Below, in pieces: positions 37,551 through 64,000 of a DNA stretch of 64,000 nucleotides. Numbering within the stretch: the first letter of the stretch is position 1; each line of letters starts with the position of its first letter. A model generated the notes under the pieces. It ran no database searches and had not been told where the DNA came from. It saw only the letters and a program-made list of their open reading frames with translations. A program made the position numbers and the translations under genes. The stretch comes from a bacterium (GTDB taxonomy: Bacteria > Patescibacteriota > Minisyncoccia > UBA6257 > UBA9933), in contig JAJYHZ010000001.1 in NCBI GenBank assembly GCA_021796335.1, positions 219,454 to 283,453 on the forward strand, read 5' to 3'.

Positions 37551-37706
37551 AATGTTTTCTTGGAATAAATTTTAGTAATTAATTTATTGAATACATTAAT
37601 TAATCGAACCTTTATTTTTCAAATTTTAATTATTTTTAAAAAAGTTTGGGAGGAGGCGTTATCCGCTCCCCCCGTTAGTTATCCCCTTTCTTCTTGCCGC
37701 CCCGGC

Positions 37707-38891: not shown

Positions 38892-39118
38892 TTAAAACCT
38901 CCTTTTTCCAATCCTATTTATTTTTCAATTTAACTTAAGAAATATCTTAAATAATAATAAACATTTTAAAAAAAAATGTCAAGAGCTAAATGTTTTAGGT
39001 ACATACATTCGGCGGTTTATGAAAAGGCTATTCGAAAATAGTGAAAGTATGGTGATTCTATTATGCCGGATGCAATAAAGTACCTTGATTCTGTGATTTA
39101 TTGCCTTTTTCCTGTGGA

Positions 39119-39424
39119 TTATCTAATTTTTCCCATTAATTCAGAGCTTTCTTTCTTGAAATTTTCCACCTCTTCTTTGATTATTTCATCCAAATCTTCA
39201 ATTTTGCTTTTCAAAAAATTTAAAATCATTTCTTCCGAGGAATTGCCGGCAAGCAGTTTTTCAAAATCATCCTTTTCCTCGTCGGATAATATGTCTAAAA
39301 CTCTTATAATAACTGCCTGAAAAATTATCTGTCCGATACTTATTAACGCCTCCTCCTGCTGTTCCGGAGAAAGTAATTCCAATCCCAAATCGTAAATTAT
39401 ATTATTATTTGTCTTTTTGTCCAT
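39119..39424 (-). CDS. acidic small hypothetical protein (101 aa)
   Basis: Clean ORF directly downstream of the 896-aa gene. It is E/D-rich and helical. Confidence 0.45.
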   Translation of the reverse strand: MDKKTNNNIIYDLGLELLSPEQQEEALISIGQIIFQAVIIRVLDILSDEEKDDFEKLLAGNSSEEMILNFLKSKIEDLDEIIKEEVENFKKESSELMGKIR

Positions 39425-39457
39425 AATTTTATGCTAATAACCACTAACAACTGCCAA

Positions 39458-42148
39458 CTATTTTCCGGCGACCTTTCCAAAATTATTTCTAAGAAAATTA
39501 AAAATCGTGGGGTTTTGTTTTAAAATCATTCGGCGGTCTTCGACAGGTATTTTTCTTATTATTTTCTCTAGCTTATCTACTAAAGCTTCTTTATCCTGGA
39601 TCGCCCACCAATTCGGGCTTCCCCACTCCGGCCTTGCGTAAGTCGGATCAAACCTGTTTGAAACGCCGTAAATAAATTTATTCTTATCTTGAGTTAAAAT
39701 ATCGGCGATGTGATGATTTTTCAAAGCATCAAGCGAAACAACGGAGTTGTCCGGATTGATTTTAAACATTGATTCAAAATATTTTTTAAAATCACTGTCG
39801 GATAGAACATTGTGCGCGCCGGCTGATTCCGGATGATTGTAATCGAAATGCGCCTCTGATCCCGGCGCGTGATAATGAAAATAATAGTCCGGATAATCTT
39901 CGGTCGCGCGGCTTCCCGCTTCATGGATATTTTTTTGAGCAGAATTATCTATCCCGAATTGCCCGCGATTTTCGGGAGTATTGTCAAGCACGCGGTTATG
40001 TGAAAATTCAGCGCCGTGGCCGAATGACAAACTGCTACCGTGCGGATCAATTTGAATGGAACCATGTCTGATATGTCTCATCATTTCTTCATATCCGGCC
40101 ATATTTTTTGAATAACCCAACTTTTCCAATTGCTTTAATGTATCCGGATTCTTTAACGCGCTTTCGGCCTGATTATGCCATAAATTATGCGCCTCTGTTT
40201 CCGCCCAATGATGTAAGTCGCCTTTGCTTTCGTTCCAGCCGAAAGATCTTGCCAATTCGTGATTTGTATCATGCTTATCTATAAACTTGTCGATAATGGA
40301 TCCTTCCGGTCCACGACTTCCTATCTCCAATTTGATTGGTTGATTTACGTGCTCAATTCCGATGTTGCCCGCATGCTGGCCGGGAATATTCTCTCCGGCA
40401 AATTGCCCATTCCCGCCTTTATTCCCGATATTCAAATGATTGTGTCCGATTGGCTCCAAATGATTTAATGAATTGCCGCCGCCAACCGTTGCATGGCGAT
40501 GCATTAAATTATTTATTTGGGAATCCCAACCATGGACATGCGAAAGCGTTCCCAATCCGTATCCTGCAGCCATACCCGTTCCCAGCATTGCCACGCCTTT
40601 TATTAATTTTTTCTTCCTATTTTTTGTCTGAAGTTGTTCTAATACTTTTTGGTATCTTTCTCCATATTCGCGCATTTTTTCCGCAGTCAATTCGCCGCCG
40701 GATAATTGCTCCCCTAATTTTTCTTTTTCACTCTTATGGAATTTTTCAATATTTCTGGATAAAACCGTATCTACACCCTTTCCGGTAAATTGACTCAGGG
40801 CGGCTCCGCCAAAGGCGCCCAAAATCCTCCTGCCGACAAAAACTGCAGCGCCGATTCCCGCAGCCGTTCCGCCGGAAACAGCAGTTGTAATCGCCACTGA
40901 TGATAAAATCCTGACGCTTCTTGGCAACTTTAAATACCCGTCCAAAGCTTTTTTGAAAATGTTCTTTTTCTTCGGTGGCCAGCTTTCAATTTTATTTTCT
41001 TGCAATGCAAGAGTTTCATTATAAATTAAGATTTTTGCAATCTCCTCAGCTTTGAATTTTTTGAGCTCATTTTCCAAATCATCGCCCTGCATGCCTCGCT
41101 CTACTAAATTATTTTTCTTTTGTTCAAGCAAAGCATTGCCGTAATTTATGTTTGCCTCTTCATAATCCAATTTAAACGCCTCCGCATTATAAATCGCTTC
41201 AGCGCGCTCGCGCGTGAAAAATCCGCCGGCCGCCGATACCTGGCTTATATATTTTTCTTTTCGTCTCAAAGCTTCCTTATATTCATCGGCCTCTGGAGGC
41301 AGTGATTTTAGTTTTTCCGGATCATCGGGACTTAATAAACCTTTGAATGATTTAATAGTTGATTCGAGAGCCCATCTTTCTTCTTTTTTTAAATTATTCC
41401 CGAAAATTCCGATATAATCTTTATAAGCATTCGCATACTCCTCGCGCCTATTATCTCTTATATTTTTCCATTCTTTTATTTCCTCTCCTTTGGTTTGTTT
41501 TTCGGTTTTAAATTTATTCTTGCCAGCCTCAAAGAATTCCCCCATATAATCTTTGCTTGCCAGATCTTGTTTTTTATTTTTTTCTTCGCCATTACTTTCA
41601 TCGAGGTTAAATCCCTTTTCACCCGCTTCAAAATATTCTGCCATATAATCCTTCTGTCTTGTCTTCCTTTTATTCTCCGAGCTTATTGGCTTATCAGTGC
41701 TATTTTCTGGTTTATCAAAGATTTCTTCTCCCTCGGGATCGGGAGTCGGATCAACCACATCATGGCTTTCAAGCTCAGCTTCTATTTCGCCATCTTCGGC
41801 TTTATTAACTGTACTATCAGAAACTGAATCGGCAACTTTTCCTGAATTTCCGCCATTGTCTTTTTGAATCAGTTCTTCCTTAATTTTTTTTAGTTTAAAC
41901 TCTATGGAATCCAATTTTTTTACATTTGACCTGCTATTATCTTCTTCATCAATGCTTATTAAATCCTCATTTAATCGATTTAAACGATTAATAATTTCCG
42001 CAGAATTATCCATTTTCCCGATTTCATCGCTTAATTCATGAATTTTTTTCAAAACCCCTCTGGCGGTCAGAGTTTCTCCGCCTTTTCCTTTGGCGATTAA
42101 TTTGTCTATCCCGCTGTGATCTTTATTATTAGGATAACCTTCTTTCAT
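39458..42148 (-). CDS. large orphan membrane-associated protein with internal repeats and His/Gly/Asn-rich C-terminal region
   Basis: 896 aa. It has repeated KDYM(A/G)E(Y/F)FEAG motifs. A central pair of Gly/Ala-rich TM helices reads SSVAITTAVSGGTAAGIGAAVFV...MLGTGMAAGYGLG. The C-terminal region is H-rich (HVHGW, HRH, HNH). Confidence 0.6.
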   Translation of the reverse strand: MKEGYPNNKDHSGIDKLIAKGKGGETLTARGVLKKIHELSDEIGKMDNSAEIINRLNRLNEDLISIDEEDNSRSNVKKLDSIEFKLKKIKEELIQKDNGGNSGKVADSVSDSTVNKAEDGEIEAELESHDVVDPTPDPEGEEIFDKPENSTDKPISSENKRKTRQKDYMAEYFEAGEKGFNLDESNGEEKNKKQDLASKDYMGEFFEAGKNKFKTEKQTKGEEIKEWKNIRDNRREEYANAYKDYIGIFGNNLKKEERWALESTIKSFKGLLSPDDPEKLKSLPPEADEYKEALRRKEKYISQVSAAGGFFTRERAEAIYNAEAFKLDYEEANINYGNALLEQKKNNLVERGMQGDDLENELKKFKAEEIAKILIYNETLALQENKIESWPPKKKNIFKKALDGYLKLPRSVRILSSVAITTAVSGGTAAGIGAAVFVGRRILGAFGGAALSQFTGKGVDTVLSRNIEKFHKSEKEKLGEQLSGGELTAEKMREYGERYQKVLEQLQTKNRKKKLIKGVAMLGTGMAAGYGLGTLSHVHGWDSQINNLMHRHATVGGGNSLNHLEPIGHNHLNIGNKGGNGQFAGENIPGQHAGNIGIEHVNQPIKLEIGSRGPEGSIIDKFIDKHDTNHELARSFGWNESKGDLHHWAETEAHNLWHNQAESALKNPDTLKQLEKLGYSKNMAGYEEMMRHIRHGSIQIDPHGSSLSFGHGAEFSHNRVLDNTPENRGQFGIDNSAQKNIHEAGSRATEDYPDYYFHYHAPGSEAHFDYNHPESAGAHNVLSDSDFKKYFESMFKINPDNSVVSLDALKNHHIADILTQDKNKFIYGVSNRFDPTYARPEWGSPNWWAIQDKEALVDKLEKIIRKIPVEDRRMILKQNPTIFNFLRNNFGKVAGK

Positions 42149-52933: not shown

Positions 52934-54256
52934 TCAGTTTTCTCCGAAACCTTCCTTTTGAGGAATTAGACTCGGATCTGTCGGTAAAGTAAAATAAAAA
53001 GTGCTGCCTCGGTTAAGCTGAGACTCCGCCCAAACTTCCCCTCCATGCCTGTTTATGATGTTTTTTACGATATAAAGCCCTAAGCCGCTTCCGTTTGTGG
53101 CGACTTTTTGCGCGTTATCTGCCCTGAAGAATTTAGTGAATAATTTATTAATTTCTTCTTTGGGTATTCCTATTCCGGTATCTTTCACACTGATCTGGAT
53201 GTAGGGTTTATCCGCAATCGGCTTAGCTTCCACGACCACCTCTCCGTTTTGAATATTGTATTTTATGGCATTGGCAACCAAATTTGACAATGCGATAGAT
53301 AACTTTTGATAGTCGATTAGAACCTGCGGCAACGGCTTTTCTGGTTTTTTTAAATAAAGTTTTATTCCGGATTCATTTGCAAAAGGCATAATATTTTTTA
53401 AAACATTCTCAATAAAAGCGACAATGTCGGTGTTTTGTAATTTATACCCGAATTTGCCCTCCTCAATCTGATTTACGTCCAATAAATCATTTACGATCTT
53501 TATGATATTCGCTGCCGCCATATTGCCCATATCAACCAATTCTTTTTGGCTATCACTGAGTTTTTCTTTTTCAAGCGATTCAAAAATCCAATTGATTGAG
53601 GTCAACGGAGTTCTTAGCTGATGGGCGGCAACCTCGATAAACTCGCTTTTTGATTCCATTAACTCCACCTCTCTTGTACGATTATGGATAACTTTGACAA
53701 ATCCCAGCAAATTTCCGTTCGGATCGACTATCCGGTCAGTGGAAATCTCAAGCTCAAGCCGCGGATCTTTAAACGTCATATCGGTTACCTGAGGATAAAC
53801 GCCCGGATCCGATTTCCGTATTACGAGCGGTGCCAAAGAAGGATATAAAACCATGCTTAAAATTGCTAGCCTGGAATCCTTGGCCCTTTCGGGAGAAAAG
53901 TTTTTATCAAGAATGCCATCCGCTTTAACCTTGAAAATATTTTCCGCGGCTCTGTTGAAAATTAAAATCCGAGAATCACGGTCGTAAGCAATCAAACCGT
54001 CGGAAAAATTCGAAATAATGCTCTTGAGTTCGTTTCTTTCTATTTTTACCTCCGTATTCAATTTATTCGCTCTTATACTGTTAACCAATAAAATCGCCAA
54101 TAAAACTATAAATATGGCTGCGGAGATCAAAAACCAGATCATCGGCATGTAAGTGATATCTATAATCAAAATTGCGAATGCTAAGGGCAAAAAATACCAG
54201 AATAAGCGCATTTCCGGTAATTTCAAATAAAGGCTGAATTTTTGCCGATTTTCCAT
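52934..54256 (-). CDS. sensor histidine kinase (2 TM + PAS + HisKA + HATPase)
   Basis: H-box HQLRTPLTSINW, N-box NLVANAIKYN and G-boxes DTGIGI / GSGLGLYIV. No response regulator in the window. Confidence 0.85.
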   Translation of the reverse strand: MENRQKFSLYLKLPEMRLFWYFLPLAFAILIIDITYMPMIWFLISAAIFIVLLAILLVNSIRANKLNTEVKIERNELKSIISNFSDGLIAYDRDSRILIFNRAAENIFKVKADGILDKNFSPERAKDSRLAILSMVLYPSLAPLVIRKSDPGVYPQVTDMTFKDPRLELEISTDRIVDPNGNLLGFVKVIHNRTREVELMESKSEFIEVAAHQLRTPLTSINWIFESLEKEKLSDSQKELVDMGNMAAANIIKIVNDLLDVNQIEEGKFGYKLQNTDIVAFIENVLKNIMPFANESGIKLYLKKPEKPLPQVLIDYQKLSIALSNLVANAIKYNIQNGEVVVEAKPIADKPYIQISVKDTGIGIPKEEINKLFTKFFRADNAQKVATNGSGLGLYIVKNIINRHGGEVWAESQLNRGSTFYFTLPTDPSLIPQKEGFGEN

Positions 54257-54294: not shown

Positions 54295-55419
54295 TTACAA
54301 ATCCAAAGAGTAAAGTTTGTTATCATAACGGTTTATGAAAAAAAGTTCATTCCCGCTCAAAGTTAAATCAACGGCATCGATAATATTGTTGTCCGAATCG
54401 TATAAAGGCTGAAACTTGTTATTCTGTAAATCAATTTGGTAAATTCCGTCATTAAAATAAATTCCGTGCTTCAAATAGTTGTCCAAGATCTCCGGATCGG
54501 AAAAGACGCTTTGATCTTTTGGAATAGCGCAATAAATCTGGCTCAAACTTGAAATCAGGCATTTGTCGGGAAAAGTAAAGAAATTAAAATCCGCTTTTTT
54601 GTTCCCGCTTCCATCAATTAATGTCAAACGGTTATTCCCGTTATCAACCGAGAATTTTATTCCCAAATCTCCAAATTTCGACCAATTCACCATTAATCCT
54701 TTCCCGGAAGCGATTTCCGACAAAGTTTTGTTTTTTAGATTCAAGTTCCAAATCTCAGAATCGATATCCGAAGACGGCTTGGAAGATAAAATAACATTAT
54801 CGGTATTAATCCAGTTCAAGTTAAAATCAATCGGACTTAACCCCGAAAGCTTGGTTATCGCAGAAGTGAATTTATCAAGCCCTGTTTTAAATATTCCTGA
54901 ATCGCTTGAATATATAATCGATTTTCCGTCCGGAGAAATATCCATATCGCCCAATTGATCAAAAGATTGCTGCCACATATTTTTATCGGAATTATACACG
55001 TCAAAATCATTCTCTCCTGTGCCTGATTTTAGTAAGATCATTTTACCATCATTGGAAATTTTTATATTTCCCAAACCGATTAAAGTCGAACTGGCTATCA
55101 AATTTTCGGTTCCGGACGCAATCTCAAATATCTGAGCATTATGATAGTTTTGTCCGTTATCATAAATATAATAAATATTGGGATTAGGGGTGGTTGAACT
55201 CGAATAGGCAACCCAATATCCCATGGCGGGATTTTTGCTTAAAATATGCAATTTGTCGGTCGTCGTAGATTGGCTTTGAACGCTGAATTGCGCCGTTGGA
55301 TTTTGATTTGAAATAGTCGGATTATTATTAGTTTTTGATTTCCAGGCAAAATAAATTCCAACAAGTAAAGCAATAATCACCAAACCTATAATAATAAAAA
55401 TTAATTTTTTCTTATTCAT
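54295..55419 (-). CDS. membrane-anchored protein with PD40/TolB-like beta-propeller repeats
   Basis: N-terminal TM helix and repeated ...SPDGK.I.YSS... motifs. It is the first gene of a tightly packed operon continuing to 57590. Confidence 0.5.
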   Translation of the reverse strand: MNKKKLIFIIIGLVIIALLVGIYFAWKSKTNNNPTISNQNPTAQFSVQSQSTTTDKLHILSKNPAMGYWVAYSSSTTPNPNIYYIYDNGQNYHNAQIFEIASGTENLIASSTLIGLGNIKISNDGKMILLKSGTGENDFDVYNSDKNMWQQSFDQLGDMDISPDGKSIIYSSDSGIFKTGLDKFTSAITKLSGLSPIDFNLNWINTDNVILSSKPSSDIDSEIWNLNLKNKTLSEIASGKGLMVNWSKFGDLGIKFSVDNGNNRLTLIDGSGNKKADFNFFTFPDKCLISSLSQIYCAIPKDQSVFSDPEILDNYLKHGIYFNDGIYQIDLQNNKFQPLYDSDNNIIDAVDLTLSGNELFFINRYDNKLYSLDL

Positions 55420-55421
55420 GA

Positions 55422-56420
55422 TTATATCTGTATATGAATATTGTCTCCGGTCGTAGTATTGTACGTTTTTCCGTTTGCTTCTTTATACTCATTAACAACA
55501 CGGCTGAATCCTGCTTGTTTCGCCGCTGCCATCATCTTTTGGACGGCATCCGTCAACTGCGCAGGACTGAGATTTTTTACATAATTTGGATCAAGCGCAA
55601 TATCAACGCAACTGCCATTGTAATGGCATTGGCTGTTATGTTGAACCGTCGGAGGCCAAGCCTCGGTAACCTGCCAGTCACCCGAAGGTATACCCATATT
55701 GGTAGCCAAAGCAGAAAGTTTATTAAGATTTCCTGTCATTTGCGAAGAAAATTGGCAACTATTGACTCCTCCCGAGCATGCCGTAAGACCAGTTTTTTTA
55801 ACATTAAAATAATCCGCATATGGATCATATGTATTGCAATTATTGCAAACTGTCTGTCCCTGCCAATTCTTGCCGAATTGAAATACGCCGGTGTTCTGCT
55901 GTGGAACCGTAGTTGTGGGCATCAAACTTTTTATTTGCTGATCGACATTACCGACATTTAAAAGATTCGGATCAATGGTGTTTAAAATCAAAGCTCCGCC
56001 GATTAAAAGCGCTAGACCGGAAAGCGCTCCGATTATATAATTATTGCCCTCCATATTAAGCGAAGGAACCCCGCTGGAAACTATTTTCAAAACCGCTCCG
56101 TAAATTAAGGCGCCCAAAGCCACGACACCCACAATTCCCAAGGCATATTCATAAATATTTATAATCAATTGTCCCGGAGTCGTTGCGGAATTGATAAATC
56201 CACTTGGTAAAAATTGGACATTCGCCGAACCGTTTGCGTTCAAACTGCCGTTGAAATTACTGTTCCCTCCGCCCGGCGATGCAACTTGGCCGTTTGAAAT
56301 AGATGCGCTCGTTGAAGCATAGCTGACTCGAACAGTTACGTCTTCGAATACAACTATGACCGTTCCCAAAACCAAAATGATTAATAGAAGTACCGAAAAT
56401 ATTCTTAAAAAAATTTTCAT
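55422..56420 (-). CDS. T4SS-associated membrane protein with Cys-rich extracytoplasmic domain (hypothetical)
   Basis: 332 aa with three N-terminal TM helices and then a ~190-aa domain with 8 Cys. It overlaps the next gene by 4 bp (ATGA). Confidence 0.45.
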   Translation of the reverse strand: MKIFLRIFSVLLLIILVLGTVIVVFEDVTVRVSYASTSASISNGQVASPGGGNSNFNGSLNANGSANVQFLPSGFINSATTPGQLIINIYEYALGIVGVVALGALIYGAVLKIVSSGVPSLNMEGNNYIIGALSGLALLIGGALILNTIDPNLLNVGNVDQQIKSLMPTTTVPQQNTGVFQFGKNWQGQTVCNNCNTYDPYADYFNVKKTGLTACSGGVNSCQFSSQMTGNLNKLSALATNMGIPSGDWQVTEAWPPTVQHNSQCHYNGSCVDIALDPNYVKNLSPAQLTDAVQKMMAAAKQAGFSRVVNEYKEANGKTYNTTTGDNIHIQI

Positions 56421-57109
56421 TGCGCGATATTTAGATTTATCAGCTTTTGCGCCCTTTCCAAATCGTTGCTCAAATTTTGCGTTTGGTTTTCGATTGTTAT
56501 CGGAGACTGATTTTGATCGCCGATAGCCAAATTAAAGATATTCGAATCGGATTGCGAATTACTTGCCGCCTGTCCATTCACATACCATTTTGTTATCAGA
56601 TTACTTCCGCTGAAAAAGAACGGCCATACGGTAAAATAATATGATCCCTTGCTGACATTACCGTTATAATAAGGCGAATCTATCACCACTTCCGGATTTT
56701 TAATCGGAATGGTTATTATTTCGTCCAAATTATTCCCGTTATAATCGGGAATTGAAATCCTCACGTTTATATCATTTCCGTTATAAGTCGTATTATCTCT
56801 GAAGGAAATGGCCTTGATGCCCAATCCGTTCTGTTCGTTTTCGTACAAATTATCGTTTATATACCAGCGCACCGGAGTTTGCGACAGATTGACTATTTTC
56901 CCGTTATCAACAAGCTCGAATGAAACTTTTATAATGCTGTTAAAAGTCGGAAAAATTTTCCCTTTAAACCAGGAAGGCGCGAAACTGTCCGCCGACCAGC
57001 TGACTAGAAATTGCGGCGCATCGCTTTGTGCTTTTGCAATTACAATGAAACCGCTTAATAAAATTGATGTCGTAAAGATTATTATAAATTTATTTTTTAT
57101 CCCGCGCAT
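56417..57109 (-). CDS. secreted hypothetical protein (T4SS cluster)
   Basis: 230 aa with a signal peptide. It is N/Y-rich and beta-rich. Confidence 0.45.
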   Translation of the reverse strand: MRGIKNKFIIIFTTSILLSGFIVIAKAQSDAPQFLVSWSADSFAPSWFKGKIFPTFNSIIKVSFELVDNGKIVNLSQTPVRWYINDNLYENEQNGLGIKAISFRDNTTYNGNDINVRISIPDYNGNNLDEIITIPIKNPEVVIDSPYYNGNVSKGSYYFTVWPFFFSGSNLITKWYVNGQAASNSQSDSNIFNLAIGDQNQSPITIENQTQNLSNDLERAQKLINLNIAQ

Positions 57110-57200
57110 AATTTTTCGGTTATTTAGACAAATCTATGATCTGTATGAAATTTGGAAAATTTTTATGAATCCGCAACTTTCATTTAAAAATTCGCGGAAT

Positions 57201-57590
57201 TCATTCTATCGGCAATTTTGTCACAGCTGAAATTCCTTTCGCTTTTTCCGGATGGTTGATGAAATAAATTGCGATTGCGACAGCCAATGGTTCTATTAAA
57301 AATCCGAACGCGTCTCCGGCAAGACCGTTTATCACGGTTCCCGCCGCGAACGTGCCAAGCTGTCTGAAACCGCGCGCTCCCATCATGAACATCCAGATTT
57401 CAACAGCGAATCCGGCAATTCCATTCAGGATTTCTGAAACCATTATACCAAATCCAGTCAAACCTCCCAAGGATCCGACTGTGGATATCAAATCAACCCC
57501 CGACTCCAGTAAACCCAAAACCAACAGCGCCAAAATTACGATGAGCGCCAACGGCAATCCGACTTTAGGCTGACTTTTTTCTTCTTCCAT
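57201..57590 (-). CDS. small polytopic membrane protein, possible VirB2/pilin-like or VirB3-like T4SS subunit
   Basis: 129 aa with 3-4 glycine-rich TM helices. Its position downstream of VirB4 suggests a T4SS role. Confidence 0.35.
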   Translation of the reverse strand: MEEEKSQPKVGLPLALIVILALLVLGLLESGVDLISTVGSLGGLTGFGIMVSEILNGIAGFAVEIWMFMMGARGFRQLGTFAAGTVINGLAGDAFGFLIEPLAVAIAIYFINHPEKAKGISAVTKLPIE

Positions 57591-57820
57591 ATTTTATTTA
57601 ACCATTTTCTATTAGTTTTAGTTTTAGTGGCTGTCCGAAAACTGTTATCCCGAACTCGCTTATCCCGTATCAGAATTTATTTTTGTGTAGAATTCAGGAT
57701 TTATAGGACGTTTTTCAGATGCTGAAATAAAGCTTGCGCTGAATTTATTTCAGTATTCGGCATGACAAAACGATTTATGTTTTATCATGCCCCCGAACGG
57801 CGCCTTGGGTATTATAAATA

Positions 57821-59572
57821 TTATGAACTTTTCTCCTGCTCCATTTCTAATAATTGTTCCGGATTTGTCGTTATTGTTTTGTCTTCAAAATAAGACGCCA
57901 CTATTTTGAGCGCAACGTGCTTCAAACCCACCAAAAACAATCCTTCGCCGACATCGGCCTGGCTCAACAGTCCTTTCTCGATTTCGCTCAAACTGAAAGT
58001 TTTTTCCAAAACGCCGATAGCAGACGGAGCCTGCTTTAATAATAACTGCAAAGATGAATTTGTTATTATCGGCTGGCCGTACTGCGAATTTAAAAAGTCT
58101 TCCACGTTCTGAGTAATCGTCGTAAGCCCCAAATAGTATTTTCTGCATCGCTTTGCCAAAGAAAATAAAAATGACGCGCTGTCCGGATACTTCATCATCC
58201 ACCACGCTTCATCGATTATCAAAATTCTTTTTTTTAGTTCCGATCTGATCAAATTCCACACAAAATTCAAAACGATATATACCGCAATCGGCCTTAACTC
58301 TTCCTCTAAATCCCTGATCGAAAAAACAACCAACCTGTTTTTTATATCAACGTTCGTCGGCTTATTCGCGAATCCGGCATAAGTCCCCTTTGTAAATTTA
58401 TATAATCGGGATGCCAAACTTTGACCGCCTTCGATATTTTCCAAAACAGTCTGTAAATCTTCGAGCAGTGGCGGCTCTATTTTTGAAAAATCTTCCACAT
58501 CGGCGGTAATCCCGCGCGAAGCATAAGTTTCCGTAATGGCTCGGTCCAAAAGCGCATCTTCTTCCGGCGTAATCTGCCCTACCATCAGCTTTAATAAACC
58601 GGCCAGGTTTAAAATATGAGATTTGAATACATCGGCCGGATCTTCGCCCTTCGGAACAATTGGAATATCCAAAGGATTAATAGAAGTTTTTGAAGTTAAA
58701 GAAATTTTCAAAACGCTTCCCCCAACCGCCTCCGCAAGCCTTTGGTATTCGTTTTCAGGATCAATAACCATAATGTCTATTCCCATCATCAATGAACGCA
58801 GGATCTCCAATTTTGTCGCATAAGATTTCCCCGCGCCGGCTTTCGCAAAAACCACCTGGTTCGCATTTTCCAAAGAAAACCTGTCAAAAATAACCAGCGA
58901 ATTATTAAACCGGTTAATCCCGTACAAAACTCCCGTGTCCGAAGTCAGATCGGTTGAAACAAAAGGAAACAAGGATGAAGCCGGATTTGTGTTTAAGGGC
59001 GTATAAATAGCCAACTTATCCTGGCCTGTCGGCATTGTTGATATGAATCCTTCGATATGCTGAAAAATCGCCGGTTTCGCATAGACCATCTGGCTATCCA
59101 GAATCGAAATAACCTGTTCTTCCAGCTTATTCAATTCATCCACGGTCTTCGCATAAATAGTTACATAGACCCCTACATTGAAAAGTTTTTCCTGAGCCTG
59201 CTGCAATTGGTCGCGCAAATTTTCTATATCCTGATAAGCGGTTTCCAGAACAGGATCGCGGACCAATCCTTTATCGTCTCTTTCAGAAAGCTGGGACTCG
59301 ATTTGAGTAACCTTCTTTCTCAGCTGCTTCAAAGCGGTGGTGGTATCAACCGGATGGACGAAAACGGAAACATCCAAAAGATTCGGAAGATTTATTATTG
59401 AATCAAACCATCCCGTGGACAAATATCGCGGATAAGTGAAAACAAAAAGAGTTTTAGAAACTATATCCCCCAACCTTAAATAATTCGGATTCACTTCCAA
59501 GGCCGCGGGAGCAATCACATTTTTCACATCTTCCTCCTTCGAATTGAATGGTTGTGGAATTTCTATTTTCAT
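57821..59572 (-). CDS. VirB4-like T4SS ATPase (TrsE/TcpF/Orf16-type), core + ATPase domains
   Basis: Walker A AKAGAGKSYAT, Walker B/DEAW motif LIIDEAWWMM and YPRYLSTGWFDSIINLPNLLDVSVFVHPVD, typical of Gram-positive VirB4 homologues. 583 aa, which is short. Confidence 0.8.
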   Translation of the reverse strand: MKIEIPQPFNSKEEDVKNVIAPAALEVNPNYLRLGDIVSKTLFVFTYPRYLSTGWFDSIINLPNLLDVSVFVHPVDTTTALKQLRKKVTQIESQLSERDDKGLVRDPVLETAYQDIENLRDQLQQAQEKLFNVGVYVTIYAKTVDELNKLEEQVISILDSQMVYAKPAIFQHIEGFISTMPTGQDKLAIYTPLNTNPASSLFPFVSTDLTSDTGVLYGINRFNNSLVIFDRFSLENANQVVFAKAGAGKSYATKLEILRSLMMGIDIMVIDPENEYQRLAEAVGGSVLKISLTSKTSINPLDIPIVPKGEDPADVFKSHILNLAGLLKLMVGQITPEEDALLDRAITETYASRGITADVEDFSKIEPPLLEDLQTVLENIEGGQSLASRLYKFTKGTYAGFANKPTNVDIKNRLVVFSIRDLEEELRPIAVYIVLNFVWNLIRSELKKRILIIDEAWWMMKYPDSASFLFSLAKRCRKYYLGLTTITQNVEDFLNSQYGQPIITNSSLQLLLKQAPSAIGVLEKTFSLSEIEKGLLSQADVGEGLFLVGLKHVALKIVASYFEDKTITTNPEQLLEMEQEKSS

Positions 59573-59588
59573 TTAAATAATTTTCTTT

Positions 59589-59608
59589 AGGTTAATTAGA
59601 ATAATTAG
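59589..59608 (-). promoter_or_regulatory. CTAATTA iteron-like motif copy A (20-mer ctaattattctaattaacct)
   Basis: Lies 16 nt upstream of the VirB4-ATPase ATG. It is a near-identical 20-mer to copy B and consists of three 8-bp-spaced CTAATTA units. Confidence 0.4.
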
Positions 59609-59679
59609 TAATTAGTTTAAATTTTATTTATTATTTTAACTCGTTATCGCGTTAACCCGTTAATACCTAATCTATTGGT

Positions 59680-60333
59680 TTATTTATCTTGTCGTACTAT
59701 ATGCAATTCTTTCTTTTCCATCGGCTGCGGATTGTATAAATTGTAAAATAATTCTATCAATTCCTCGGTCATAAGCGCGACCGCCCGCAAACCGATTGCA
59801 GATAACCCGGCGACAACCTCATCAGTCCTTTGATCTAATTGGCTTATCTTTTCTTCCAGGGTTTGTGCATCCTCCGACGCGTTTTTTTTCTTCTTGCCAA
59901 AAAACGGAATTGCTTCCATAACTTTTTCGGTTCCCTCGGAGATATTTATCGCATCATATGGAACGACAACGAAAAAATTTTTGGACATAATTTCGTTTGA
60001 TTCAACGAAAGATTTCACAAATTCCACGTACTCGGAAATCTGATCTTTCAGCAAGTCGTTCTTTTCGTTCTCCTGCATCTCACTTAAATTATCCAAATAC
60101 CCTTTGATATTTAATTTCCTCGAGTGAATGACTATTTGTAATGAAAAATCGAGGGAATTCAAAAAATTTTGATAAGCTCCCAAAATCGCGTTCTGCTCGT
60201 CTTCGGATTTCAATTCGAAGTTAATTCCCGTTACCATCAAAACCCGCCGTAAAGAGCCGCTTTTTAAAATAACTGTCCCGTCGCGGATTTCTTCGATATC
60301 AACAAATTGTTGGGTTGATTGGGATTCTTTCAT
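59680..60333 (-). CDS. protein resembling the N-terminal (CagE/TrbE/VirB4 N-domain) part of VirB4
   Basis: 217 aa with no TM helix. DGTVILKSGSLRRVLMVTGINFELKSEDEQNAILGAYQNFLNSL matches the pattern of the VirB4 N-terminal domain as I recall it. It lies 107 bp upstream of the ATPase ORF on the same strand. Confidence 0.45.
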   Translation of the reverse strand: MKESQSTQQFVDIEEIRDGTVILKSGSLRRVLMVTGINFELKSEDEQNAILGAYQNFLNSLDFSLQIVIHSRKLNIKGYLDNLSEMQENEKNDLLKDQISEYVEFVKSFVESNEIMSKNFFVVVPYDAINISEGTEKVMEAIPFFGKKKKNASEDAQTLEEKISQLDQRTDEVVAGLSAIGLRAVALMTEELIELFYNLYNPQPMEKKELHIVRQDK

Positions 60334-60402
60334 AATAACTAATAGTAACTAGTCGTTGGTTTTTAGTTTTCGCAATAAACTTTTCAACATTTTCATAACT
60401 TC

Positions 60403-60711
60403 TTACAAGAATAATTTCAAACGAATGAATTCTTGTTTAGGTCTTAAGCCTAATTTCTTTGATAATAATAGCTGAGTTTCTGATTCTACGCCAGACCCAG
60501 AGGCAATAGAGATAACTTGATAGAACTCCTTTTTATGTCTTCGAGATAATCCTTCTGCGATATTTGAGGGTATTGATATGGCGCATCTCTTTATTTGGGA
60601 AGTTGTTCCATATAATTCATATTTTGGAAAAAACCTTGTTAGTTCATAAATTTCCAGAACTAATTCCATTGATTTATTCCAAACAATCAAATTTTTATAA
60701 GAGTTTTCCAT
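60403..60711 (-). CDS. four-helix-bundle protein (23S rRNA intervening-sequence protein / Avd-like family)
   Basis: 102 aa. LIVWNKSMELVLEIYELTRFFPKYELYGTTSQIKRCAISIPSNIAEGLSRRHKKEF..IASGSGVESETQLLLSKKLG is the canonical family pattern (VWQKA...P..E.YGL.SQ.RRAA.SI.SNIAEG...E...L). Confidence 0.7.
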   Translation of the reverse strand: MENSYKNLIVWNKSMELVLEIYELTRFFPKYELYGTTSQIKRCAISIPSNIAEGLSRRHKKEFYQVISIASGSGVESETQLLLSKKLGLRPKQEFIRLKLFL

Positions 60712-60757
60712 TTTTTTAAAAAATAATATCTAAAAACTAACGGCTAATACTAACCGA

Positions 60758-61270
60758 TTACCTGTAATCCACTCTCTTCGCCACTTCTTTTTCTCCGGTT
60801 AATTTTCTAAATACGCTGTATGAATCGGTTTGTTTTATCGGACCGGTTTTTTCCCTTCTCGGAATCGGATTTTTCGTCGTGGTTAAATCATTCCAAAGCT
60901 TTCCGATAGACGGCATGCCAAATGAGAAATCCTTCAAATTTTTCCTTTCTTCTAAAACTTTCTCATTGGGAATATCGATAACCGTGGTTTTCAATTCCCT
61001 TTGCCACAAATACATTCGCGGCTGCCAGAAAAAATTCAAAGCCGAAATTATTATTTTAATCAAAGGCTGTCCATTGTATCTGACAAAAGCCAAGGAAATT
61101 CCGATTACGGCTACGAAAGTCGTGAGTAATAACCAAATCCAGAACGGAAAAATAAAATAACCGATAAAACTGATTGCGCCCGCTCCCAATAAATAAAGAA
61201 GCTGCTTTAAAGTAAGCGGTCCGGCAATCTTATCCTCAACTTCAATAAATTGGGGTATTTGAAAGCGCAT
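60758..61270 (-). CDS. PrgI/TcpE-family (VirB3-like) T4SS membrane protein
   Basis: 170 aa. QIPQFIEVEDKIAGPLTLKQLLYLLGAGAI followed by two TM helices and RYNGQPL. This matches the Tn916 Orf17/PrgI pattern that normally sits directly upstream of the VirB4 homologue. Confidence 0.6.
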   Translation of the reverse strand: MRFQIPQFIEVEDKIAGPLTLKQLLYLLGAGAISFIGYFIFPFWIWLLLTTFVAVIGISLAFVRYNGQPLIKIIISALNFFWQPRMYLWQRELKTTVIDIPNEKVLEERKNLKDFSFGMPSIGKLWNDLTTTKNPIPRREKTGPIKQTDSYSVFRKLTGEKEVAKRVDYR

Positions 61271-61292
61271 ACAACAAAAATTAATCTAATTT

Positions 61293-61315
61293 CTAATTAG
61301 TCTAATTATTCTAAC
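61293..61315 (+). promoter_or_regulatory. CTAATTA iteron-like motif copy C (inverted orientation)
   Basis: ctaatttc taattagt ctaattat tctaac has four 8-bp-spaced units. It overlaps the stop of the upstream four-helix-bundle gene and lies ~35 bp upstream of the prgI-like start. Confidence 0.35.
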
Positions 61316-61659
61316 TTATTTTTAATTTTATTTCGAATTGAATTAAAAATTAAATTTAATTCCTTCGCTTCCTGCCATAATTTTCGAGCATCCTCTTTTA
61401 AGTCTGGAGATGTGACCACAGCCATTCTTAACCAATATTTTGTTTCTCGAGCTTCTTTTTTGCGAATCTCGATCTTATGTTGAAAATCCTTGCTTGATTC
61501 CGCATCGTCGGCTTCACAATAATTTGCGCCAATACTTGTTCCCGCTCTAACCAGCTGAATTATTATCGGCTTTATAATTGAATTTTGGAGAATTTTTTTA
61601 GAAAAATTTATAATTTCTTCACCAAATTTAGCGGTTCTTTCTTCCAAATCATATTTCAT
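61306..61659 (-). CDS. four-helix-bundle protein (23S rRNA IVS protein / Avd-like family), second divergent paralogue
   Basis: 117 aa. IIQLVRAGTSIGANYCEADDAESSKDFQHKIEIRKKEARETKYWLRM is a family hallmark (RSGTSIGANY.EA....S..DF..K..IA.KEA.ET.YWL). Confidence 0.7.
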   Translation of the reverse strand: MKYDLEERTAKFGEEIINFSKKILQNSIIKPIIIQLVRAGTSIGANYCEADDAESSKDFQHKIEIRKKEARETKYWLRMAVVTSPDLKEDARKLWQEAKELNLIFNSIRNKIKNKLE

Positions 61660-61674
61660 AATTGGAATTTACTT

Positions 61675-61694
61675 AGGTCAATTAGAATAATTAG
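61675..61694 (-). promoter_or_regulatory. CTAATTA iteron-like motif copy B (20-mer ctaattattctaattgacct)
   Basis: Lies 15 nt upstream of the four-helix-bundle gene ATG at 61659. It shares 19 of 20 nt with copy A at the same spacing from the ATG. Confidence 0.4.
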
Positions 61695-61947
61695 AGATTA
61701 GGTCAATTTTTACTATTCTATTTCCTTCAAATCTATTGATTTTCATTCTAACTCGTTAATAAGTAAATTAATGTAGCTATTTCCCTAATGTCCTCAAATC
61801 CACCATGTTTTCTTCCGCCGAATATCTTCTAATTTAATTTCTTCCGATAATTCGGAAAAATCTTTCCTTTTTTAAAACAATCTTGTCGTCAAAATTATTC
61901 TCATTATTAGTTGCATCACATATATCTGTTGTATATTGGTATTGTAT

Positions 61948-63135
61948 TTATTTCTCCAGCATCCTCAGATCCACGATATCTTCCTTCACAGGGATATCTT
62001 CCAGTTTTACTTCTTCCCGTGGCTCGGGCAGCTCCGCCGGTTTATTTAATGTAACGGTGTTATTTTCTTTTTCGACTTCCTTTTTAGGCAAAGGCTGATA
62101 AAAATTGACTGTTTTGGCCGGCTGTTCACCAATGATTTGTTTTTGAGGCAATACTGATTCCAGTTTATTTTCTCCGATAATATCCGGCAGTTCCGGCTTG
62201 TCAATTTTATTTAATTCCACGACCTTCGGCGCTGCCTGATAAAAATTAATACTGCTATTTTCTTTCGGCTTCAAAGGAAGATCTTCCAAAATTACAGGTT
62301 GCTCAAAATTGGCATTTTTTAATTCGGACTGTTCGGAAATTTTCACGCTTGGTTGGACGGCGGATTGCGGAGTCTGCGGCAGCGGATTATTGATTTGTTG
62401 CGCGATTTTTTCTTGCGCATTCATTTCAGCCGGCTGTCCGGAAGTTTGATTCAAAAAAGAATTTTTAAAATCGCTGTAATGCACGATTTTCATTTTCGGT
62501 TTTTCGGTCTCTCCGATTTCTGATGTTTTTGTTTTATTGAATAAACTTACCTCCGCTTCAACCGGTTTCTCGGGCATAGGAGGAATCTTCTCATCCCGCC
62601 TGAAAAGTCCGAAAATTCCGGAAAAAGAGGGCTTGGACTGCTTTATGGCGTTTACTTTTTTCTCTTCGTGAATAATAGCCGGCGCCTCTCCGATTTCATT
62701 CAAATTGACGGTCTTTGCGACTTCAGATGATGGAGCCGACGAAATTGCAATTTGCTCTGATTTCGAACCAAAATCAACCGGATTGTCGTTTACGGCAACC
62801 GATTCCTTATCTGAAACCGGACTGTATACTTCATTTAATTCATTTTGAATTGGAGAAAAAATTTTTCGATTGATTTCTTTTGCCAAAGATTCCGCAATTT
62901 CGTTTTTTACTCCCAAAGCAGCGATTTCTCTTTCCAGATCCGCGGCGCTTATAAAACCCAATATAATATAACCGCCGATTGAAGCAAGATCATATTTTTG
63001 ATCATCTGTTAAATGGAATGTATCGCCTAAATTCCATAATAAATTGGCGCTTTCTTCGGAAAATAAGGCTTCTTTTAAATTATCCGACAAAGTGTCATAT
63101 CTCCTGTCGATTTGTTCTTGCGGTATTTTTTTCAT
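61948..63135 (-). CDS. hypothetical protein, low-complexity P/E/K/Q-rich C-terminal half
   Basis: 395 aa with no TM helix. It is the first complete gene upstream of the T4SS-like block. Confidence 0.45.
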   Translation of the reverse strand: MKKIPQEQIDRRYDTLSDNLKEALFSEESANLLWNLGDTFHLTDDQKYDLASIGGYIILGFISAADLEREIAALGVKNEIAESLAKEINRKIFSPIQNELNEVYSPVSDKESVAVNDNPVDFGSKSEQIAISSAPSSEVAKTVNLNEIGEAPAIIHEEKKVNAIKQSKPSFSGIFGLFRRDEKIPPMPEKPVEAEVSLFNKTKTSEIGETEKPKMKIVHYSDFKNSFLNQTSGQPAEMNAQEKIAQQINNPLPQTPQSAVQPSVKISEQSELKNANFEQPVILEDLPLKPKENSSINFYQAAPKVVELNKIDKPELPDIIGENKLESVLPQKQIIGEQPAKTVNFYQPLPKKEVEKENNTVTLNKPAELPEPREEVKLEDIPVKEDIVDLRMLEK

Positions 63136-64000
63136 TAAGTTTTTATTTCTTCTTTCTTCTCTTCTTTTTCATCTTCTTCCTCGCCAAAAGCGACCTTGCC
63201 CATGGATTTTTTGATAGTCTTCTCAATTCCTTGCCGAGTTTCATCATCATAAGTATGCAACGTTTTACTCATATAGCTTGCAAACAGCCTAATCGAGGAA
63301 ATGTCCATTTTTGGAAACATACTATGAACAGCGTTAACCCTTTGCGCTTTCACCAAAGCGTTCGTAATTGATTGTCGTAAAGATTCTAAGGCCTTCGGAG
63401 ATATATTCAAGTTCGGTTTTGCCTTAAATGCTTCCAAAATTTCAATTGCGTTTGCGAACTCCGCAGGTTTCATATCTCTATAAATTTTTGCCCTTTCTTT
63501 CTCTTCTTCATCCCGAAGTTTCTTGTAATCGTCATGCATTTTAACTTGTTCCGGAGAAGATGTTTGTTTTGCCCACCAAGCTTCCGGTTTATCTTCTATA
63601 TCTTTCACATTTTCAGCCATGGCATCGGCTTGCTTCTTTAGAGACAATGTCTTTGAATTCTCTGTTGATCTCTTCGCTACATCGTCATAATCAAATCCTC
63701 GGGTATCAAATTGCTTCTCCAGCTTTCCCACCTCATCTGGATTCATAAGAACTTCTTTCAATACCTTTCCGCCTTTTTTAAATTTATTCTTTTTGGCGGC
63801 TTCATCTAACAAAACCATTTTTTGAAAACCGGATGCAGCCAATATTCTAGACTCGATTTGATCCTTGGATAAACCGCTCAAACTGTCACGATATTCCTTC
63901 TCTCCGGTTCTGGATAATTTCTTAGTCTGGGTCTGCAAACTTGTCAGCCCTTTGGAAGCAGCTCCTGCGCCCAACAATTTACCCAAAGTTCCCCTGTTTG
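63135..64000 (-). CDS. hypothetical protein, 5'-truncated by window edge
   Basis: The open frame continues past 64000. The track Met at 63986 is really a TTG, and upstream in-frame codons show no stop. The product is K/E-rich and helical. Confidence 0.4.
   Translation of the reverse strand, partial: NRGTLGKLLGAGAASKGLTSLQTQTKKLSRTGEKEYRDSLSGLSKDQIESRILAASGFQKMVLLDEAAKKNKFKKGGKVLKEVLMNPDEVGKLEKQFDTRGFDYDDVAKRSTENSKTLSLKKQADAMAENVKDIEDKPEAWWAKQTSSPEQVKMHDDYKKLRDEEEKERAKIYRDMKPAEFANAIEILEAFKAKPNLNISPKALESLRQSITNALVKAQRVNAVHSMFPKMDISSIRLFASYMSKTLHTYDDETRQGIEKTIKKSMGKVAFGEEEDEKEEKKEEIKT

Follow-up and report, generated by a model that had tools for sequence, protein, structure and literature searches.

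A 64,000-nt stretch of DNA from a patescibacterium (Patescibacteriota; Minisyncoccia; UBA6257; UBA9933; assembly GCA_021796335.1, contig JAJYHZ010000001.1, positions 219,454 to 283,453; hereafter the window) carries near its end a block of minus-strand genes related to type IV secretion systems (T4SS). We consider it likely that this block represents the middle and distal portions of a chromosomal, vertically inherited, MPF-FATA-derived Patescibacteria T4SS in its Paceibacteria (Wolfebacteria-like) version, and that the four-helix-bundle genes found in it are not parts of the machine. The evidence includes profile matches for three core proteins (PrgI, TrsD, and VirB4) and a gene order that recurs in the same chromosomal neighborhood in 80 species. 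The T4SS class itself is known; the modestly novel features are the fusion of a pilin to a Hedgehog/DD-peptidase fold and the T4SS-enriched four-helix-bundle cassettes that resemble intervening sequences (IVS).

An earlier reading of the same DNA, made by a model without database searches (hereafter the original prediction), had listed nine minus-strand open reading frames (ORFs), all of which are present where it placed them (Table 1). It had also regarded the membrane components as the uncharacterized part; the T4SS class as such was described in publications of 2023–2025.

Table 1. Features of the T4SS cluster. Coordinates are positions in the window; those beyond 64000 are window-equivalent positions on the source contig.
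Feature	Coordinates	Strand	Description
p374	54295-55419	-	membrane-anchored TolB-like beta-propeller; last conserved gene of the module
p332 (332 aa)	55422-56420	-	signal anchor, low-complexity linker, pilin hairpin (aa ~82-149), peptidase fold (aa ~190-332)
p230	56417-57109	-	secreted; two Ig/FN3-like beta-sandwich domains
p129	57201-57590	-	small Gly-rich polytopic membrane protein directly downstream of VirB4
VirB4-p129 spacer	57591-~57820 (~230 nt)	-	unusually long, strongly structured
VirB4 ATPase	57821-59572	-	C-terminal two-thirds of a canonical VirB4; NF045971, CD1110 family
Solo 5' arm of 4HB1 cassette	59582-59626	-	abuts the VirB4 start codon, in the 107-nt TrsD-VirB4 spacer
TrsD-like protein (217 aa)	59680-60333	-	free-standing VirB4 N-domain; matches N-terminal parts of VirB4 models
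Degenerate 4HB2 cassette	60340-60757	-	ORF 60403-60711 (102 aa), C-terminally truncated
PrgI/VirB3-like membrane protein	60758-61270	-	PF12666, 40.7 bits (gathering score 27)
Intact 4HB1 cassette	61272-61716	-	5' arm 61668-61712, ORF 61306-61659 (117 aa), 3' arm 61272-61305
p395	61948-63135	-	T4SS-linked, between the VirB6-like gene and PrgI
p722, C-terminal part (283-aa ORF 63135-63986)	63135-64000, gene continuing to ~65303	-	VirB6-like (weak assignment)
p519 and p247	past p722, up to ~67609	-	further module genes in conserved order

Core genes, gene order, and likely role

The comparison set was obtained by a VirB4 scan in which one genome was retained per species, and comprises 80 loci with VirB4 proteins that are 58–78% identical. 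These loci come from metagenome-assembled genomes (MAGs) of Wolfebacteria, Jorgensenbacteria, and other Paceibacteria, and the nearest VirB4 relatives are all from Patescibacteria MAGs. The presence of orthologs was scored with iterative hidden Markov models (HMMs) built on the ORFs of the 80 loci.

A Gram-positive-type core of PrgI and VirB4 had been predicted, and profile searches confirmed it as MPF-FATA-like. PrgI, as supposed, is a PrgI/VirB3-like protein that scores above the gathering score of PF12666; it contains two transmembrane (TM) segments within amino acids 24–63 and was found in 73 of the 80 loci. The VirB4 ATPase, in which Walker A (AGAGKS) and the DEAW motif noted before can be read, the latter as Walker B, reaches 379.9 bits against NF045971 (cutoff 325) over model positions 181–732 of 752, and also matches P-loop_TraG and AAA_10. 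The ORF directly upstream, correctly likened to the N-domain of VirB4, matches ~135–190 N-terminal positions of VirB4 models (NF045971 positions 2–134, NF045975 99–236, TIGR00929 4–186) and is present in 79 of the 80 loci; its precomputed Pfam assignments are TraC-like and VirB4_TrbE_N, and its match to the TrsD model NF041427 (E 4e-11) lies below the cutoff of that model. Since the TrsD-like ORF and the ATPase ORF cover separate parts of VirB4, VirB4 is split in this cluster. A generic FtsK/HerA operon, which the original prediction had named as one outcome that would speak against it, is ruled out by the matches to VirB4, PrgI, and TrsD.

The sequence past the window end was read from the public source contig (ENA ERZ27233565, 201 kb), on which p722, p519 (secreted and Cys-rich), p247, and KsgA follow in that order. 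The conserved module comprises 11 genes in the order p247-p519-p722(VirB6-like)-p395-PrgI-TrsD-VirB4-p129-p230-p332-p374; it begins ~3.6 kb past the window end, and the block originally noted is its distal two-thirds. The complete order is identical in 23 of the 80 loci, and the remainder are compatible with it, the deviations being mostly contig ends. The term “minimal,” which had been applied to this T4SS, is therefore not appropriate for a module of 11 conserved genes that extends beyond the window, where it encodes a putatively VirB6-like polytopic protein and another two proteins that are secreted. Likewise, the proteins that seemed to have no counterparts possess conserved positional orthologs across Paceibacteria, each being detected in 51–79 of the 80 loci. 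The 2–4-bp overlaps said to couple several genes hold for p230 and p332, which overlap by 4 bp, but p332 and p374 are 2 bp apart and the other gaps measure 35–230 bp.

The genes in the window and in 10 kb on each side of it, namely ~84 kb of the 201-kb contig, were inspected. The reported lack of a VirD4-type coupling protein (type IV coupling protein, T4CP) and of a relaxase in the window holds for the Pfam-annotated genes of this whole region, in which no integrase or att-like boundary was found either; the look past position 64000 that had been recommended revealed more T4SS genes instead of VirD4, relaxase, or integrase genes. The neighbors are housekeeping genes (SecA, UvrABC, DnaK/DnaJ/GrpE, MurG, FtsW, PBP2, Fpg, and KsgA), and the G+C content of the cluster is similar to that of the rest of the window. 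The recurrence of the same gene order in the same chromosomal neighborhood, with KsgA upstream, in 80 species argues for vertical inheritance. Promoter and terminator scans stayed at background level, so that operon boundaries could not be called, and an Rfam scan of the region from 53.5 to 64 kb gave no match.

As neither the cluster nor its vicinity encodes a coupling protein or relaxase, host contact or the transfer of proteins or other macromolecules is the most likely task of the machine, rather than conjugation. A non-conjugative role in an episymbiont had been suggested from the sequence and is likewise proposed in two published accounts (Wang et al., 2023, PMC10633639; Quinonero-Coronel et al., 2025, PMC12102498). 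According to the former, the epibiotic growth of Southlakia requires a Gram-positive-like T4SS that has pilins but lacks a coupling protein and a relaxase, as determined by transposon sequencing (Tn-seq); genes for a peptidase and a lysozyme that lie downstream of virB4 were essential as well. The latter, a survey of ~2,500 Patescibacteria virB4 genes, gives TrsD as the most frequent partner, and describes PrgI, VirB6, and VirB2-like pilins near virB4, a scarcity of relaxases, and proximity to ksgA and dnaA. Work on the T4SS of Patescibacteria has been summarized in a 2025 review.

The transported substrate might also be DNA. A relaxase-free system for DNA import or export, comparable to ComB-like or Ced-like uptake or to GGI-like release, could feed a nucleotide-auxotrophic cell; a pilin is present, as such a system might have, VirB4 shows weak and partial similarity to the archaeal importers CedB and CedD (E 1e-11 and 8e-4, both far below the cutoffs), and the ABY1 class links T4SS with competence genes (PMC12102498). 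However, the CedB match is limited to the shared ATPase core, the locus contains no competence or DNA-processing genes, and competence in Southlakia needs ComEC and type IV pili, whereas its T4SS is essential independently of ComEC (2025 review). We regard a role in DNA import or export as unlikely, and host contact or macromolecule transfer as the more natural role of the machine.

The pilin–peptidase-fold protein p332 and the other module proteins

The protein p332 is a VirB2-like pilin domain fused to a zinc-peptidase fold of the Hedgehog/DD-peptidase (LAS) type with an H-x6-D...H triad. It had been described as a protein with three TM segments and a Cys-rich ectodomain; the N-terminal anchor, two more hydrophobic helices, and six Cys residues are indeed present, but the helices belong to the pilin and the ectodomain has the peptidase fold. 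The pilin model PF18895 (T4SS_pilin) was matched by 62 of 71 positional orthologs and by 46 of 49 sequence relatives of p332. A word-indexed search with p332 returned only the query, and an exhaustive HMMER scan, used in its place, yielded 3,329 relatives. The structure modeling recommended for this protein gave an AlphaFold2 (AF2) model with a predicted local distance difference test score (pLDDT) of 80.6 overall, consisting of a pilin-type two-helix hairpin (helices 82–114 and 119–149, pLDDT 86–95) and a C-terminal domain of pLDDT 90–98 with the Hedgehog/DD-peptidase fold. In Foldseek searches with this model, the Hedgehog N-domain (HhN) was retrieved with probability 1.0, followed by Ply500, ChiX, and the RB49 L-Ala-D-Glu peptidases. 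The profile of 49 sequences matched the Sonic hedgehog N-domain (ShhN) with an E-value of 4e-8, the alignment running across the zinc motif; in the same 49 sequences, E253, H261, H266, D273, and H329 are invariant, the last three being the zinc ligands of the triad, and E311 of an “NEY” motif, which is aligned with E176 of ShhN, is conserved in at least 90%.

The hairpin and the peptidase fold of p332 together imply that both a pilin and a candidate wall hydrolase are present in the cluster. The earlier statement that the window has no VirB1 hydrolase is misleading: no SLT or CHAP domain occurs in the window proteins, but p332 carries an unrelated peptidase domain of the LAS fold. In other members of the p332 family, an SLT, 3D, or NlpC/P60 domain is found at the same position, which favors a wall-hydrolase role for the domain in p332. 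The alignments of this family (e.g., L029, L038, and L030 in alignments A1/A7) show that relatives have exchanged the C-terminal domain behind the hairpin, the variants being Hedgehog-like, M15-like with the motif SxHxxGxAxD...HIH, SLT, 3D, NlpC/P60, and Cys-rich domains of no known family. In some genomes, two p332-type genes stand in tandem.

As single sequences, the four proteins encoded downstream of VirB4 (p129, p230, p332, and p374) gave no significant family match. The secreted character of p230 was borne out by its signal peptide, and the gene is present in 68 of the 80 loci. Its AF2 model (pLDDT 84.9), which had also been asked for, is all-beta with two domains of tandem Ig/FN3-like fold and is not VirB8-like; Foldseek retrieved SiiE (BIg), CbhA (Fn3), Hoc, and RbmA, and p230 resembles adhesin modules. 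A VirB8/TcpC-like identity of p230 is ruled out by this Ig-like fold and by the negative hhalign comparison with PrgL of pCF10. No VirB8-like (NTF2-fold) subunit was found among the proteins tested, p129, p395, p519, and p247 not being among those modeled. For p374, the predicted PD40 beta-propeller is below threshold in the single sequence, but its family profile (57 sequences) supports a propeller and matches the TolB beta-propeller in the PDB with an E-value of 1.9e-10. This protein has an N-terminal TM segment and occurs in 57 of the 80 loci, always after p332; in two members of its family a PG_binding_1 domain is added.

The protein p129 was aptly described as glycine-rich and polytopic (14% Gly, hydrophobic), and is present in 63 of the 80 loci. 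No member of its family has a Pfam or PDB match, and hhalign comparisons with PrgF, PrgG, the pilin family, and the VirB6-like family were negative. When its profile was searched against 5.8 billion proteins, only Patescibacteria entries named “hypothetical protein” were found. Judged by its sequence, p129 is a conserved protein of no known family. The spacer that separates it from VirB4 folds with a minimum free energy (MFE) of -56.3 kcal/mol into three hairpins (z -4.83), a value that none of 200 shuffles reached, and Rfam contains no match to it, whereas the distance between the VirB4 end and the p129 start is ~20–60 nt in the related loci examined. This spacer may harbor a so far unrecognized structured RNA or be left over from an element.

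Upstream of PrgI, p395 (66 of the 80 loci) lacks TM segments and is composed of an N-terminal domain of ~95 amino acids and a Pro/Glu-rich low-complexity tail; it has no Pfam or PDB match, and the profiles of p395, p519, and p722 yielded coiled-coil noise or nothing when compared with the PDB. Some relatives of p519 carry additional adhesin-type domains. A degenerate, frameshifted copy of the last ~23 codons of p395 (..EEIKLEDI..VDLRTLGK*) was observed at 61777–61845 on the minus strand, ~100 nt past the genuine stop of the gene and a short way upstream of the 4HB1 cassette (alignment score 60, compared with a maximum of 38 in 300 shuffles). This duplicate suggests a past rearrangement or insertion at the p395/4HB1 junction.

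Four-helix-bundle cassettes in the operon spacers

Two ORFs of the block had been recognized as four-helix-bundle proteins, and both match PF05635 and TIGR02436. Their supposed role as T4SS accessories did not stand, since such genes are missing in 62 of the 80 loci, occupy variable junctions, and belong to a cassette that is found in many unrelated operons. We read them as selfish, IVS-like cassettes of ~430 nt that reside in operon spacers and not as parts of the machine; the window contains one intact cassette, one decaying cassette, and one solo arm.

The ORF of the intact cassette, 4HB1, matches PF05635 (E 8e-14) and, over its full length, TIGR02436 (E 4e-20). Its arms form a duplex of -24.2 kcal/mol, and in the global fold a terminal stem of ~44 paired bases encloses the ORF (MFE -99.2, z -3.94, 0 of 100 shuffles). 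The ORF of the degenerate cassette, 4HB2, matches TIGR02436 with an E-value of 4e-30 and PF05635 with 1.9e-32, the latter over profile positions 1–94 of 106 only, and this cassette has no significant terminal stem (z -0.3). The solo arm is a 45-nt repeat that is 82% identical to the 5′ arm of the 4HB1 cassette; a 23-mer of it has only these two matches in the 64 kb, where none is expected. In loci without a cassette, the TrsD–VirB4 spacer has a median length of 4 nt. The solo arm looks as if the ORF and the 3′ arm had been precisely deleted. The possibility that the spacer is the remnant of a hairpin was rejected, as no significant fold was obtained. The distance from the solo arm to the start of VirB4 equals that from the intact arm to the start of 4HB1.

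The repeats had been reported as iterons. They are real (the 45-nt repeat and units of the TAATTAG type), but they represent the arms of cassettes; replication iterons are ruled out, because the repeats are complementary sequences around an ORF and no replication gene is present. Most cassettes in the related loci show the same design, and every four-helix-bundle ORF in the VirB4 loci is flanked by mutually complementary sequences rich in short repeats. The duplex between the two arms of a cassette has a lower energy than that between mismatched pairs (-21.2 vs. -14.4 kcal/mol, p 3e-4), a control that is informative for the divergent cassettes of VirB4 loci and not for the 4HB1-like ones, the arms of which are conserved across loci; it is also lower than that of the flanks of other genes (p 0.003).

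When metagenomes were scanned with 4HB1, more than 480 relatives were obtained, of which the best 80 are 65–77% identical, in contrast to ~34% identity between 4HB1 and its counterparts occupying that junction in sister genomes. In more than 80 metagenome loci, the arms are conserved along with the ORF, and the conservation ends ~46 nt upstream of the start codon and ~25–30 nt downstream of the stop codon, limits which define an element of ~430 nt. The neighbors of 4HB1-like cassettes fall into 116 clusters among 152, with PrgI, TrsD, and VirB4 being the commonest. None of 40 related cassette loci without T4SS genes contains rRNA. As the cassettes lie between protein-coding genes and not in rRNA, they should be called IVS-like rather than IVS. 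In one metagenome contig (L138), a DUF3800-II RNA (RF02961, 71.6 bits) is located at 727–797, ~180 nt upstream of a 4HB1-like cassette.

The distribution of the cassettes is far from even. Among the 80 loci, they occupy the junctions p395–PrgI in 11, PrgI–TrsD in 3, and TrsD–VirB4 in 4 cases, the remaining 62 loci having none; their ORFs invariably point in the direction of the operon, and not even the closest relative has the same occupancy. In VirB4-centered loci totaling 1.35 Mb, 18 of the 20 four-helix-bundle ORFs lie in these three junctions, which make up 18% of all junctions (binomial 5e-12). Cassettes of the 4HB1-like type (in L086, L092, L100, L115, and others) were also observed at the p519–p722 and VirB4–p129 junctions and amid arrayed genes for VirB2-like pilins. 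Their occurrence in pilin arrays and at these other junctions indicates that the preference covers the whole T4SS cluster and not one site.

Such a concentration could mean that the four-helix-bundle proteins truly belong to the T4SS as accessory or regulatory subunits, such as Avd-like binders of nucleic acids or proteins, and that the repeats are their regulatory binding sites. The invariable co-orientation would agree with this, as would the finding of T4SS genes in the flanks of 19 of 80 metagenome loci that contain close relatives of 4HB1. However, a subunit would hardly be expected to be absent from most loci, to vary in position even between closest relatives, and to be less similar between copies at the same junction than between copies in unrelated operons; moreover, one of the copies in the window is truncated, the neighbors are diverse, and the repeats, instead of being tandem binding sites, are complementary to each other and stand on either side of the ORF. 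A subunit role is thus distinctly unlikely, and the interpretation of these genes as selfish cassettes is preferred.

Proposed mechanism, significance, and comparison with known systems

A feasible mechanism for the Paceibacteria T4SS may be drawn from these parts. VirB4 and TrsD, docked on PrgI and a VirB6-like channel, would energize the assembly of an envelope-spanning apparatus that contains VirB2-like pilin subunits. The pilin-tethered peptidase would cut peptide stems of the peptidoglycan, of the cell itself or possibly of the host, to open a path for the apparatus, and would thereby replace a hydrolase of the VirB1 or PrgK type. The Ig-like p230, the TolB-like p374, and p519 may constitute an extracellular, wall-associated part that contacts the host cell. 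In the polycistronic transcript, the arms of the four-helix-bundle cassettes would form an RNase III-type stem, by analogy with the IVS of 23S rRNA. A bolder proposal, which we advance tentatively and with more doubt than confidence, combines two ideas: that mobile PF05635 cassettes colonize operon spacers with a more than ten-fold preference for T4SS operons, at PrgI/TrsD/VirB4 junctions and in pilin arrays, their RNase III-type stems cutting or insulating the mRNA and so reshaping the expression of an essential machine, and that the Paceibacteria pilin is a bifunctional pilin and peptidoglycan peptidase.

Several points speak against parts of this account. The VirB6 assignment of p722 is weak: the full protein (722 aa on the source contig) contains, besides a signal peptide, six TM segments and a C-terminal domain of ~330 amino acids that is hydrophilic, and 5 of 56 family members match TrbL/VirB6 PF04610 (best E 1.3e-7), but p722 itself had no Pfam match in a fresh scan and only a weak TrbL_3 assignment in the precomputed annotation. 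The single p332 sequence is too divergent to match PF18895 (E 7.2), and p332 may be a polymerizing pilin or merely a membrane-tethered peptidase. The HxH motif of its peptidase domain reads NxH, with Asn in place of the first His, and its catalytic competence is suggested by conserved residues only. RNase III processing of the cassette arms would hold by pure analogy, and a functional link could lie behind the enrichment that the cassettes show around PrgI-TrsD-VirB4. Furthermore, a coupling-protein gene could lie in another part of the genome, given the ~84 kb covered of the 201-kb contig, and T4CP homologs far from virB4 are common in Patescibacteria (PMC12102498). Finally, the essentiality data come from Saccharimonadia only and not from Paceibacteria.

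Few machines of Patescibacteria are known to be indispensable for their epibiotic life, and the T4SS is one of them. The present locus adds nothing categorically new, but provides a conserved list of 11 parts for the largest class, Paceibacteria. In this list, the pilin–peptidase fusion p332 is a concrete candidate for the “missing VirB1,” and the TolB-like propeller, the Ig-like protein, and the orphan membrane protein beside VirB4 are further items. For annotation, the frequent four-helix-bundle genes should not be counted as T4SS components. If the cassettes are indeed mobile mRNA elements processed by RNase III, the concept of the intervening sequence would extend beyond rRNA; if the pilin is bifunctional, a wall-cutting enzyme would sit on the pilus subunit.

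Outside the module, a histidine kinase gene (PAS-HisKA-HATPase, 52934–54256, minus strand) is located 38 nt downstream of p374, with no adjacent response regulator; it is syntenic in the four closest relatives only and therefore probably does not belong to the module. At ~15 kb from the T4SS, also on the minus strand, two large genes (39458–42148, 896 aa; 37707–38891, 394 aa) have no Pfam match on record, and a third (35157–37550) encodes a 797-aa protein with CLIPPER and faint fn3 matches. The large genes at 35157–42148 may encode surface or adhesin proteins.

Among the known Gram-positive systems, those of pGO1, pSK41, and pIP501 share with the present cluster a separate protein that resembles the VirB4 N-terminus and is encoded directly upstream of the ATPase (TrsD/TraD, then TrsE/TraE). 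By contrast, they are plasmid-borne and possess a relaxase, a T4CP, a TrsG/TraG hydrolase with SLT and CHAP domains, and a VirB8-like protein, none of which were found here. The Prg/Pcf system of pCF10 (PrgH-PrgI-PrgJ-PrgK-PrgL) is similar in that PrgI and a CD1110-family VirB4 are encoded in one operon with a gene upstream that is, here by a weak assignment, VirB6-like; however, profile comparisons of PrgF, PrgG, and PrgL with p129 and p230 revealed no similarity, pCF10 has no pilin, and its PrgK-type hydrolase, PcfC coupling protein, and PcfG relaxase have no counterparts here. That the block is part of a DNA-transferring conjugative element, such as an integrative and conjugative element (ICE) or the remnant of an integrated plasmid of the Tn916/pCF10/pCW3 type, is highly improbable: although VirB4 best matches the CD1110 conjugal-transfer family, PrgI and TrsD are families of conjugation systems, and the same PrgI–VirB4 core occurs in pCF10, neither the window nor the 10 kb on either side of it was found to contain a gene for a relaxase, a T4CP, or an integrase or a boundary resembling an att site, the gene order and the neighborhood with KsgA upstream are chromosomally conserved in 80 species, the composition is not deviant, and relaxases occur in only ~100 of several thousand genomes in the published survey (PMC12102498).

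With regard to the cassettes, the IVS of the 23S rRNA of Coxiella burnetii measures 428 nt and has a terminal stem of 28 bp with an S23p ORF in the loop, and it is excised by RNase III (PMC4990558). The cassettes resemble IVS in the PF05635 family of the ORF, in their size of ~430–445 nt, and in their design, a long stem of terminal inverted repeats whose loop holds the ORF; they differ in being sited between the protein-coding genes of operons and not in rRNA, their cleavage being proposed only by analogy. The C-terminal domain of p332 shares the fold and the H-x6-D...H triad with Hedgehog/DD-peptidases (LAS, MEROPS M15), including ShhN, Ply500, RB49, and the bacterial Hh-like peptidases (Roelink, 2018, PMC6027127), and is distinguished from them by its fusion to a pilin, its Cys-rich character, a loop of ~14 residues before the last His, and NxH in place of HxH.

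The closest counterpart is the published Patescibacteria T4SS, as represented by SEML1_0006-0019 of Southlakia epibionticum and by the survey (PMC10633639, PMC12102498). The present cluster differs from it in having a single gene with a pilin domain, which is not part of an array and is fused to a Hedgehog/DD-peptidase domain, and additionally contains p129, the Ig-like p230, the TolB-like p374, p395, p519, and p247, which were not found named in the parts of the two accounts that were read. On the other hand, the two have in common VirB4, TrsD, PrgI/VirB3, a VirB6-like protein (weakly assigned here), and one or more VirB2-like pilins encoded next to virB4, as well as a chromosomal location near ksgA, the lack of a relaxase or coupling protein nearby, and wall-hydrolase genes downstream of virB4.

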